A DNA stretch of 64,000 nucleotides from positions 342,612,001-342,676,000 of the forward strand of contig OZ024741.1 of the NCBI GenBank assembly GCA_964016885.1, in the 5' to 3' direction. The stretch is from Eledone cirrhosa (Eukaryota). A program made the translations under genes and the position numbers. Position 1 is the first letter of the stretch. Each line of letters starts with the position of its first letter. A model generated the notes under the pieces. It made no database searches. It saw nothing but the letters and a program-made list of their open reading frames with translations, and was not told the origin of the DNA. This document shows positions 51,462-55,208 of this stretch, piece by piece.

Positions 51462-52737
51462 TCCTTTGTCAGTGTTGAACAAATAGGGCAGCGATGGTTG
51501 CCGAACACTGTACTGCTAATAATTCGGGCTGTTTGTTTACAAACAAACCGAGCATTATAATAAATGTTCGGTAAACCCATGCGTACATGTGTGCATGTAT
51601 GTGTGTATATACATACGACTGTGCGTCTGTATACATCCTAAACGGACGGTAGTCCGTTTAGTAATATTGTTGTGGTCGTGTTTTCGTTGGCATTCGTCTG
51701 TTTATGACAGTACAGCGCGGCTCTACTTTATTTAACTGAGATAAAACTTATATGAGCATGAACAGTAGATCATTACGCATCTTTTGGCTTAAAAATCTAG
51801 TTATTTGGTCCAGCGGGAAAAAGTTTATAATCAAAGTTTGCTGATAAATCTTGTGTTCAAGTGAGTGAGTAGTAAGCGTGACCCTAGGGGAGGTAATCCA
51901 GAAATGACGTATTTTTTTTGCGGAACTCTTATGATTGTGATTACGTTAGTCAAATGTAGTCAAATCGCAGAATCCCCTCCTCCTAATTGACTACGTCATT
52001 TCTGAACGGCCCTACTTGCGTCAGTGTGAAACATTACTTCACTTTTCACTGCTAAAATGCTTTTTAAATACTTCGTTAAAAATTTATGTTTATTATCAAA
52101 GCTATTTTTTGTACCAATCTATCAATAGTTTGCGAAAATATAGGTAAACATGTGAGTTAAATTCTTTTTAATCGCATCGATCGCTTTGTCGCACCGACTG
52201 TGACACTGTCTGACTGTCTGTCTGACTGGCACCTTTGTCGGACCGACACCTTTGTTCAAGCGGACAACTTTGTGTCACTGACACCTTTGTTCGTGCCGGC
52301 ATCTCTGCGAAACACCAATGACAACAACCAGACCAAAATTTCACTTCATTCTTCATTCTTCTTCAAGACCGATCGCCAACCGATCGTATCGGTTGCTCTT
52401 CATATATCAGGTATTCAACAGATAGTTTGCACTTCTAGTATTATTAACAGTCGTGCGATTTTTTGTACCGATAGGTGCGAATAGTGCGCAATATTTTCTG
52501 AGATTTGCATCCGCTAATTTCGCTTAATTAAAAATGATGTTTCGCGGCTTTTTGATCGGCTTATTCATTTTTTCCATGGCACGGAAATGGAGTATTTCCA
52601 TTTCGAATCAAAACTTTTCACTAAAATCGGGCAATTGGACTGATCAAATTCACATTCATGCCAGTTTTTACAAATCCAGAAGGTATAAAAATATTAATTC
52701 AAATGTATTTACTTATCATACCAACAAAAATACTTAG

Positions 52738-53298
52738 ATATTTTGTATACCTGGGGCCCGTCAGGGCCAGGTAATGTTAATCGCCAACATTGTTATCTGT
52801 TGTCCTTTTGTGAAAGTATTGGTGGTTCATGTCGGCTCTAATGATCTGAATCCTCGTCGCACCGTTGGCACTACAAAGCTGTGCAAAGTAATACAATAAT
52901 TTTTGCGCAAGTATTTTTTATTAATCATTTATTTGTAAATTAAGGACAAAGTGCCCATTCGAGGCATAAAACCGGAAAAACAGGGGAAGAGTCTCTTTGC
53001 AAGGCTACAGAAAATAGCGGAAAAGCACCACTGTACACCCATTTTCTACAGTGGTGTCATTCCACGTCCACAAAGTGTAATTGAAAATAAAAATGACTTG
53101 GGCAAGAGAAATTCTCGTTTGGAAAAGTTTAATTACTGCATGAAAGAAATGATTCAAAAATTGAACTTGCCCAATCTTCACAACATTGAAAATTGGTCAA
53201 AATTTGACAAATCTGACTTCAAACCAGATATAATTCATTTGAACAATGTTGGAAATCTTAAATTGACACAAATTTTTGCCAATGTTTTTGCCACCTGA
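52738..53298 (+). pseudogene. SGNH/GDSL-hydrolase (esterase) domain gene, intron-interrupted, N-terminus degraded
   Basis: IFCIPGA (block II), VLVVHVGSNDL (block III GxND), SGVIPR, KPDIIHLN (block V DxxH). Putative phase-0 intron 52888-52944 (GT..AG, contains the in-frame stop). AATAAA near 53336. Confidence 0.75.
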
Positions 53299-53478
53299 TC
53301 TTTGTTCTATGGCTGACTGACTAATTTTGTGACTTAATAAAATGTCATCATACTAGTAATGCACAATGGTCATTTTTAAATTTAAATTTTATTAAATAGT
53401 TGTTGCTTGCATTGCCTTAAAATAGTAACAAGAATGTACACATACTTTTTAAAAATACATCATTATCAATCAAATCAG

Positions 53479-53840
53479 TCAAATGTCACTAAAAGCCAGG
53501 TGGTCGATAACAACTTCTATAAGATTAGTTACATGCTCACACATTGGATCACCTCTCATCAATGGCATTGGGTGTCTGAGATAATCGTGGAGATAACTGA
53601 TGAAGTCACAAATGAAGTGATGGTCTTCCAGTGTGAACAACTCCCTATATCCATTGATATATGTGATGGCTTCCGATTCATAGGTGCATTTTATGAGGAA
53701 TTCCATGCGTTCCGATTTTCAGTGATTCAATGGGCATTTTATCAGAGATGATAAGGTATTTGACCACGTTTTGCTTTGTAAGTAAATTGGAGAGAATCAC
53801 TGCAGTCAAAGTCATTTCTTTGCATGGGTTTTTGTCCATT
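53479..53840 (-). pseudogene. Unknown small protein exon, convergent with the SGNH gene
   Basis: MDKNPCKEMTLTAVILSN...KIGTHG, then a frameshift, then IKCTYESEAITY...VVIDHLAFSDI. Preceded by a 43-nt GTAAG...TTTTTAG intron-like segment (53883-53841). Minus-strand AATAAA near 53390. Confidence 0.45.
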
Positions 53841-54113
53841 CTAAAAAGTTAAAATGATAAAGTATTACTACTATATAACTTACATCTATTGTTGTAACAC
53901 CATTGAAATGCACAAGTTTCACCAATTCACTATTATGCACTAATCATCTCAAATGCAATCATGATTTACTAGCTTTGTCATTAAGCCAGTTGCCTCAACT
54001 AGATTGCAATTATACTCAAAAGAACTTTAAAATGTCAATCACTTGTCAGTAATTCACTATGATCATTTAATTATTAGATAGTTGTTGCTTGCATTGCCTT
54101 GAAAAATAGTAGA

Positions 54114-55208
54114 CCAGATAGAAAAATGCGTACAGCAAAAAAAAGTAATATTGTTGGAATATAAACCTTTAAAAATACAGGACAAGAAACTAAAATAAAA
54201 CTTTAAAAGAATAGGACAAGAAACTAAGATAAAACTTTAAAAGAATAGGACAAGAAACTAAGATAAAATTTTAAAGAATTGGACAAAAAATAAAAAAATT
54301 TTACAATAATATTAGTGGCAAAATTTTTTTATTCGTTTCCTGTGCTATGCCCCAGTATCTTCTTGATTAGTGCATAATAATTGTCATGCTCTCATTGTGC
54401 GTTGCCCCTGAGCGGTTGGTTCTGGTTGGGGTTGGTTGGCTGAGCAGTTCTGCTCCGTCAGAATGACCATTGCAAGAAGAATTGGCCGATGCAGCTGCAG
54501 GTCTCCTCCAAGAATGCACTTCTGGTCCCGCAACACCAGACGAAGATGGAGAAGACGACCGGGACAAGATGTCGACTCTGACCACCGACTACGGCACCTC
54601 CCTCAACCACCGGTCCTCCCTCCCTCTGTCCCGTTATCCCTCCAGTCCTCCTGCTCCCCCTTCCTGTACCAGAAAGCTGTGGCACGCATTCATCTGGACT
54701 GCCGGACTTGAACTCAAGGAGAAGATGCAAGGAGAAGATGGACGGGTTGGTCAAGATCAAGGATGAGCGGGACGACAAGACCGTCCGCTGCTGCTCAAGA
54801 TCTGTGCTCATGGGTCCATGGGTCCATTCACATTATGCATGACACATGAGGCGTGTCGCCGAATGATGAAATAGGGGTATGGTTATGGCCCAATTGGTGT
54901 TCAAACCAGGATCAAATGATCCCCCCGGTCTGACGACGACCTCTGAATGTGGAACCCAGAGCCTATTAATGTGGAACTCGATTTTTTACCAATAAAAATT
55001 TTGCCACTAATATTATTGTAAATTTTTTTTATTTCTTATCCAATTCTTTAAAGTTTTATCTTAGTTTCGTGTCCTATTCTTTTAAAGTTTTATCTTAGTT
55101 TCTTGTCCTATTCTTTTAAAGTTTTATTTTAGTTTCTTGTCCTGTATTTTTAAAGGTTTATATTCCAACAATATTACTTTTTTTTGCTGTACGCATTTTT
55201 CTATATGG
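54114..55208. repeat. ~220-bp inverted repeats (with internal ~33-bp subrepeats) enclosing a GC-richer ~650-bp coding-like core
   Basis: ccagatagaaaaatgcgtacagc...tagtggcaaaatttt (54114-54332) versus its reverse complement (about 54990-55208). Confidence 0.92.

Follow-up and report, generated by a model that had tools for sequence, protein, structure and literature searches.

A 3,573-bp block on the plus strand of a 64,000-nt stretch of the Eledone cirrhosa genome (the window; all positions given here are counted within it) very probably arose by internal deletion from a 12.6-kb element of the HLE2 (Helentron/Helitron2) type, and was likely mobilised in trans, through the Rep/helicase of full-length relatives. 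The block (51636-55208) belongs to an element family designated A, and lies between an A and a T of the host sequence without any duplication. It is real and mobile, yet represents neither a new class of element nor anything virus-like: the window copy is an ordinary dead transposon copy, a recent non-autonomous HLE2-type insertion with a broken gene, likely for an SGNH esterase. The initial annotation had taken it for an undescribed or virus-like element lacking a mobilising enzyme, with no Rep/helicase visible. This does not hold, as a full-length parent with a Rep/helicase open reading frame (ORF) occurs in the same genome, and the reading frame upstream of the first predicted intron in the block is the N-terminus of that protein, so that a trace of the transposase is present in the window itself. 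What the annotation said of a mobile element with fixed ends, no target-site duplication and an intron-bearing, likely SGNH gene is borne out by dispersed copies sharing the same ends, and its mention of Helentron-like elements by a transposase of HLE2 type.

The full-length parent and its transposase

The complete family-A parent, found in the 3.0 Gb of genome searched, is 12,628 bp long, and the window copy corresponds to its positions 1-1157 joined to 10168-12628. The missing 9 kb or so (parent positions 1158-10167) include nearly all of the Rep/helicase ORF, of which the window retains the start, about 48 codons up to the deletion junction (52534-52678, plus strand); this piece is recognised by its match to the parent and is not an esterase exon. 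Long copies were reached by following 5′ ends and sister-family motifs. In the full-length element an intron-containing gene, likely of SGNH type, lies downstream of an HLE2-type transposase with the order DUF6570-Rep-PIF1-UCH. The genome-wide check for longer copies proposed at the outset has yielded both the parent and the mobilising enzyme; the association with a ribozyme-like repeat that was to be looked for at the same time is not recurrent.

Two further families, B and C, are related to the parent. Family B is 11.2 kb long, its ORF shares 81-88% nucleotide identity with that of family A, and its transposase scores above the Pfam cut-offs for Helitron_like_N, PIF1, DUF6570 and UCH. The Rep of family C is 54% identical, has the same domains, and lies in open frames of 2,230-2,245 aa in seven of the matches listed. 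According to the HELIANO study, DUF6570 is a marker of HLE2, and UCH is enriched in HLE2 subgroups c and d (PMC11417382). DUF6570 is found in the transposases of families B and C with E-values of 9e-18 and 1e-17. UCH forms the C-terminal domain of the transposase, and no apurinic/apyrimidinic (AP) endonuclease (Exo_endo_phos) was detected in these two families. An ORF with Rep (HUH) and PIF1 helicase domains, together with the lack of a target-site duplication, is Helitron-like, and the hallmarks of long interspersed nuclear elements (LINEs) and Penelope elements (a reverse transcriptase, a tail, a variable 5′ end, a target-site duplication) were not seen in the family-A copies or among the ORFs of at least 100 aa in the parent. 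The residues ahead of Rep motif 2, YFWRLEYQ, fit the F/Y-w-R rule of HLE2. Among 41 database relatives, the closest 17 include proteins of Rhodnius and of rotifers. In a quick and unfinished tree, built without reference elements and with a single, long-branched HLE1 row, which itself limits the case for HLE2, families A and B and their closest relatives form a clade of 19 rows (SH-aLRT 100) far from that row. A search with PF14214 returned mostly HLE1 loci, and the HLE1 rows of this genome read RGLPH and are distant.

Several further points weigh against the reading of the block as a derivative of an HLE2-type element. The Pfam scans of the transposase covered families B and C, and family A is assigned by homology. 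The family-A Rep/helicase ORF in the 9 kb missing from the window is frameshifted, and no intact family-A transposase occurs among the copies examined, the longest open frame being 1,174 aa; the best ORF of family B runs for 1,904 aa to one internal stop, after which 507 aa follow. Rep motif 2 reads RGAPH rather than the RGSPH of HLE2; RGAPH is also present in 13 of the 17 closest homologues (a pattern search gave no motif in the remaining four). Finally, the ends differ from those described for canonical HLE2 (PMC4067079): these insert between T and T (T|T) and have, at the 3′ end, a stem-loop beyond the right repeat, whereas the present families insert at A|T with termini TC...CTRR, have their hairpin at the 5′ end, and add a long inverted duplicate of the 3′ end.

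Some features of the transposases stand apart from these questions. Family C (L101-L108, e.g. G000:C2:253894022-253906873) is 12.9 kb long, its copies are 99% identical, and it has a 2,230-aa open frame; it is very young and, judged from its sequence, likely an active HLE2. The N-terminus of the family-A/B transposase (residues ~124-132; L073:1350-7061, L056 ~1520-1555) holds LLIIGCVELNPGP, which by sequence resembles a 2A ribosome-skip motif with C instead of D. The canonical form GDIE(Q/T)NPGP is found in 2 of 41 homologues, ExNPGP occurs 3 times in 43 proteins against 0.02 expected, and the motif is absent from the family-C transposase. No description of an NPGP motif in Helitrons was found in the literature searched.

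Copies in the genome and element ends

When the block is excised, the host repeat in which it lies is intact again, with no target duplication, as had been noted initially. Since a single T is involved, 51636-55208 and 51637-55209 are formally equivalent; the first follows the Helitron convention A|TC...|T. The block is also free of dinucleotide microsatellites (0%, against 7.9% over the rest of the window), in agreement with its earlier description as poor in such repeats. Used as a query, the first 2,464 nt of the block gave 43 matches when 40 of 733 candidates were scored. Of these matches, 37, the window included, are 91-100% identical to the query and span at least 98% of it. The first 35 nt of the element occur 295 times genome-wide as exact matches, with none for the control. 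Eleven family-A copies diverge by just 1.6% on average (55 pairs), so the burst of this family is recent.

The ends of these copies are uniform. A|TCC stands at each of the 48 distinct 5′ ends examined in families A and B, of which 30 were chosen without regard to the A|T dinucleotide and 18 by means of a pattern containing it; T follows every one of 43 terminal 3′ ends, and CTRR closes 42 of them, the exception being the window's own, mutated to ATGG. One family-B copy nested in a family-A copy provides a filled and empty pair, again without duplication. The 10-bp hairpin seen at the start of the block is confirmed at 51638-51661, from base 3 of the element; none of 200 shuffles was equally stable (z -3.84), and one pair change in sister family B is compensatory. 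It is followed by the left subterminal inverted repeat (51660-51672), which pairs with the right one (55166-55178); this repeat is 13 nt long in family A, common to family B, and 10 nt long in family C. A TC start with a hairpin from base 3, a weak 3′ fold and a CTRR|T finish recur in all three families, the 5′ stem of family C being longer than that of A and B and different from it. A strong hairpin at the 3′ end is absent (z 0.46; -2.3 to -2.7 kcal/mol across the three families).

Two irregular arrangements of ends were observed. Several family-B copies (L062, L063, L067, L069, L072) have two 5′ ends in tandem, as reported for Fusarium Helitrons (PMC5148889). In the long family-A copy L079 (~3600-3640), an inverted 3′-end piece of ~30 nt, joined to transposase sequence, replaces the 5′ end.

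The 3′ cassette

Each of the families A, B and C has a 3′ cassette of 1.0-1.1 kb, whose arms of ~190-220 bp invert the family's own 3′ end. The terminal inverted-repeat cassette reported for the window is real, with arms of 219 nt that are 97% identical. The terminal arm (54994-55208, plus strand) contains 34-nt tandem units and the right subterminal repeat, and ends in CTGG in other copies and ATGG here. The inner arm (54113-54328, minus strand) repeats the 3′ end in inverted orientation, with CTGG and a copy of the subterminal repeat (54144-54156). The interior between them (54329-54993) is unrelated between families, and is flipped in 2 of the 31 family-A cassettes scored. Of 46 terminal ends in families A and B, 44 are accompanied by an inner inverted copy; as many of these loci were selected by means of nearby sequence, the sample is not blind. 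Since three families keep a long inverted 3′ copy though the arm sequence has changed, a function of the arms is pointed to. A test for copy-correction between the arms with each new insertion gave no support for it. Among the arm variants, 5 are shared and 150 occur in one arm only. No description of a long inverted 3′ duplicate was found in the literature covered; Repbase, subscription papers and bioRxiv supplements fall outside that coverage and may contain these families. The end layout common to the three families, with a hairpin from base 3, subterminal repeats, a weak 3′ fold and an inverted 3′ duplicate, may be new.

The family-B cassette interior (L061:6070-6687) contains a frame of 205 codons in which the cysteines form a PHD-finger-like pattern, with no Pfam match. 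Such a pattern is typical of the starts of LINE ORF1.

The esterase gene

The plus-strand SGNH esterase of the initial annotation stands in part: its GxND and DxxH motifs are present in the window, but block I is lacking and the gene is out of frame with the transposase ATG. All three of the GT-AG stretches that had been reported are found at their positions. On the plus strand, predicted intron A (52683-52737, 55 nt; 54-58 nt in 22 copies) precedes a likely SGNH exon with, by sequence motif, block II (PGA) and block III (GSND) at 52738-52887; predicted intron B (52888-52944) is 57 nt long in 22 of 22 copies and has in-frame stops, and the last likely exon, with block V (DxxH), extends from 52945 to 53298. 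Four long copies keep an upstream exon with an IVGD(S/L)IIRN block that ends in ...QK ahead of intron A. Once introns A and B are taken out of one of these four copies, 228 codons read without a stop, and blocks I, II, III and V follow one another in that sequence; in this copy an N replaces the D of block V, which the window copy keeps.

The ~9-kb deletion removed the GDS block of the esterase from the window copy. The same transposase-to-esterase junction, at a short microhomology, is present in 17 of 17 other 3.6-kb copies, where its product reads YKS instead of GDS (YKP in one of the 17). Thirteen of the 17 have an uninterrupted frame between the transposase ATG and intron A, and ten also retain the two exons with every splice site; relative to these copies, a further 31 bases are missing from the window copy, which is out of frame. 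In this commonest 3.6-kb derivative (L002 and 16 others; window 52657-52682), about 48 transposase codons are fused in frame to the esterase. The fusion, with a serine at the place of the catalytic serine, is likely an accident of microhomology.

The identification as an esterase has evidence against it as well. The Pfam GDSL match reaches 17.7 bits against a cut-off of 27 (E-values of 0.0047 and 0.029, below the cut-offs), the best PDB match of the SGNH region is 4C1B, an "ORF1-encoded protein", at an E-value of 0.34, and the last exon has no relative in two large protein searches. A single-sequence fold of the read-through region gave a pLDDT of 34, and a metagenome scan returned one 27-residue match, which was not used. 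In contigs from four runs of one study, of a kind not on record and silent on expression, none of the three introns is skipped by any joint; the contigs extend without a break across introns A and B, as expected of DNA, and their joints match deletion derivatives.

Whatever its product, the gene is not required. It was not found in families B and C (tblastn), it is missing in three further long family-A copies, and derivatives without most or all of it are common, so the idea of the esterase as a required gene is rejected. Because shorter derivatives without one or both also spread, the esterase remnant and the minus-strand ORF of the block are likely passengers. Elsewhere in the genome, L087 (G000:C18:42429166-42432498) has a frame of 466 codons with the shape of a LINE ORF1 esterase, its C-terminal GDSL_2 domain scoring above the cut-off. 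This is the one GDSL_2 match in the genome, and it is not a close relative of the SGNH gene of the element.

Alternative explanations

Three other accounts of the block were weighed. The 1.1-kb cassette might be a separate element, similar to a miniature inverted-repeat transposable element, that was captured at a Helitron end, its arms having no role in rolling-circle termination. The length and near-identity of the arms would suit such an element, as would interiors that are unrelated between families and occasionally flipped, and the two ends of 46 at which the inner arm is missing. Yet the outer end of the arm is the CTRR|T terminus of the element itself and contains the counterpart to the 5′ subterminal repeat, the same layout recurs in three families with arms matching each family's own end, and the bases beyond the terminal arm vary from one copy to the next and are not a duplicate of those preceding the inner arm. 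This makes capture improbable.

An origin as a fragment of an undescribed compact-gene or virus-like element that targets a ribozyme repeat, the view taken from the initial annotation, is less probable still. The window copy does sit within a ribozyme-like repeat, the esterase exon and the minus-strand ORF lack database relatives, and the gaps between predicted exons are very short, but the full-length parent encodes a Helitron-type Rep/helicase, and other copies do not share the landing site (see below). Equally hard to credit is the view of the esterase part as a piece of a CR1/L2 LINE ORF1 or of a Penelope/Terminon-like element, with retrotransposition moving the block. Its support is the PDB match 4C1B, which we take to be the esterase of a zebrafish LINE ORF1, and which does make a distant LINE origin of the cargo plausible. 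Against transfer by this route, no reverse transcriptase was seen by eye among the ORFs of at least 100 aa in the 12.6-kb parent, both ends are fixed without a tail or duplication, and the gene retains its predicted introns. A deletion derivative of an HLE2-type element is thus the preferred reading of the block.

Proposed mechanism

Under that reading, a family-A or family-B transposase would mobilise the block in trans by rolling-circle transposition. By analogy with known Helitrons, the Rep domain would nick one end and the helicase displace one strand, which, after a cut at the other end, would enter an AT target, probably via a circular intermediate; for strand displacement and AT insertion the model follows the Helitron biology summarised in PMC5148889. 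As there is no strong short hairpin at the 3′ end, pairing between the terminal and inner arms is proposed: within the displaced strand, the last ~220 nt of the element would anneal to the inverted inner arm. The resulting long stem, closing exactly at CTRR, would mark the end. That this stem is the end signal is a tentative suggestion, which the odds do not favour. It is opposed by the two ends without an inner arm, by the mostly independent decay of the arms (the 5 shared and 150 one-arm variants come from 32 cassettes), and by three mismatches between the arms of family B that persist in 12 of 12 cassettes.

Relationship to known elements

The closest system is the HLE2 group, likely its UCH-bearing subgroups c and d, together with the non-autonomous HINE/DINE-1 derivatives (Li et al. 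2024, PMC11417382; Thomas et al. 2014, PMC4067079). The present families share with it the DUF6570-Rep-PIF1 and UCH arrangement, short subterminal inverted repeats (12-16 nt as a rule), the lack of a target-site duplication, and the many deletion derivatives (PMC4067079). In Helentrons in the strict sense an AP endonuclease is fused to the transposase, and here UCH is found instead.

In its layout of ends, the family most resembles the proto-Helentron of oomycetes. This Phytophthora element and the HLE2-reverse elements FoHeli3-5 of Fusarium have an HLE2-type protein without endonuclease (PMC4067079; PMC11417382; PMC5148889), and, ahead of the left short repeat, a stem-loop at the 5′ end (PMC4067079; PMC11417382). 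The proto-Helentron also inserts at A|T and ends in CTAG, but starts with TT rather than TC (PMC4067079), and carries SET/TIR cargo, for which the family-B and -C transposase ORFs scanned gave no Pfam match. FoHeli3-5 end in CTCCTGT, unlike the CTRR seen here (PMC5148889), and a 200-bp inverted 3′ duplicate is not mentioned in the available descriptions of either. The proto-Helentron has been reported only from Phytophthora, and HELIANO found none in 404 genomes (PMC11417382). Canonical Helitrons (HLE1) are similar in their 5′ TC, 3′ CTRR, A|T target and lack of duplication, but have a 3′ hairpin and neither DUF6570 nor short inverted repeats, the opposite of what is found here.

For the cargo, the nearest parallel is the texim-Helitron of teleost fish, in which an intron-containing SGNH gene is likewise carried by a Helitron and is dispensable for its spread (Tomaszkiewicz et al. 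2014, PMC4021074). The texim gene is related to CR1 esterases, and the Helitron coding region lies 3′ of it or in its last intron, whereas here the SGNH gene is 3′ of the transposase (PMC4021074). Unlike texim, it also has very short predicted introns and occurs in one of three families. The capture of an SGNH gene in this genome was likely independent of that in fish.

SGNH cargo in Helitrons, UCH in HLE2, HLE2 forms with a 5′ hairpin and the A|T/CTAG proto-Helentron are already in print. The family behind the block matters modestly; recognition of HLE2 ends is poorly understood. As far as the accessible literature goes, an HLE2-type protein with A|T and CTRR ends had been reported only from Phytophthora. 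It is conceivable, though rather doubtful, that the three families are an unrecognised animal lineage of HLE2, with HLE1-type cut sites (A|TC...CTRR|T), a 5′ hairpin, a ~200-bp inverted 3′ duplicate as a giant-stem terminator around an exchangeable, invertible cargo loop, and in one family an SGNH capture separate from that of fish. Since family C has 2,230-2,245-aa open frames among the matches listed, the function of the end layout can be tested on a natural copy. Software built around T|T targets and a 3′ stem-loop would probably misassign ends of this kind, and a second Helitron with SGNH cargo bears on the repeated pick-up of this esterase by mobile elements.

The minus-strand ORF and a ~90-bp motif

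The convergent gene of the initial annotation, an ORF behind a 43-nt intron, holds up only as far as the GT-AG stretch (53841-53883, minus strand). There is no open coding exon upstream of it, and splicing would place a stop before the ATG, so that it is at best an intron of the 5′ untranslated region. The ORF itself (53479-53839, minus strand) encodes 119 aa in 19 of 23 copies, and is frameshifted near 53709 in the window, leaving 53 aa. By language-model features it is BTB/BACK-like (0.90-0.92), the top match (0.93) being an unnamed cluster; nothing was found in Pfam or among longer proteins.

Facing AATAAA signals are present as described, at 53336 (plus) and 53388-53393 (minus). They accompany a ~90-bp motif (53338-53427, plus strand) that recurs with 76% identity at 54028-54111, beside the inner arm, as a direct repeat flanking the minus-strand ORF. 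In families B and C, too, its core lies ahead of the inner arm, so the motif may be a cis element and not a poly(A) region.

The host repeat

The landing site (51150-51635, continuing at 55209-55291, plus strand) is a unit of a separate high-copy repeat family, with 2,368 candidates genome-wide, of which 40 were scored. The claim of a ribozyme repeat as the landing site is right as to the insertion, while the ribozyme amounts to a likeness at the level of motifs: a minimal hammerhead-like motif (51420-51460), ~175 nt from the insertion point, has the conserved core words CUGAUGA...GAAA and a C-A mismatch at the base of stem II. Rfam gave no hammerhead match for the repeat, and its lowest-energy fold is not a hammerhead (z -0.70). 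No element end is found at any of ten other repeat loci, and of 33 further 5′ flanks of family A a single one touches the repeat, at a different position. Targeting of the ribozyme-like repeat is accordingly rejected, and insertion beside the hammerhead-like repeat was likely chance.

The host repeat (50434-51635, 55209-55291) forms inverted and palindromic arrays, and minimal hammerhead motifs in such arrays are typical of Penelope-like pseudo-LTRs (long terminal repeats). Away from the block, about 7 kb of the window (33000-40000) are very G-rich, with a GC skew of 0.7-0.9, and are likely a tandem array.

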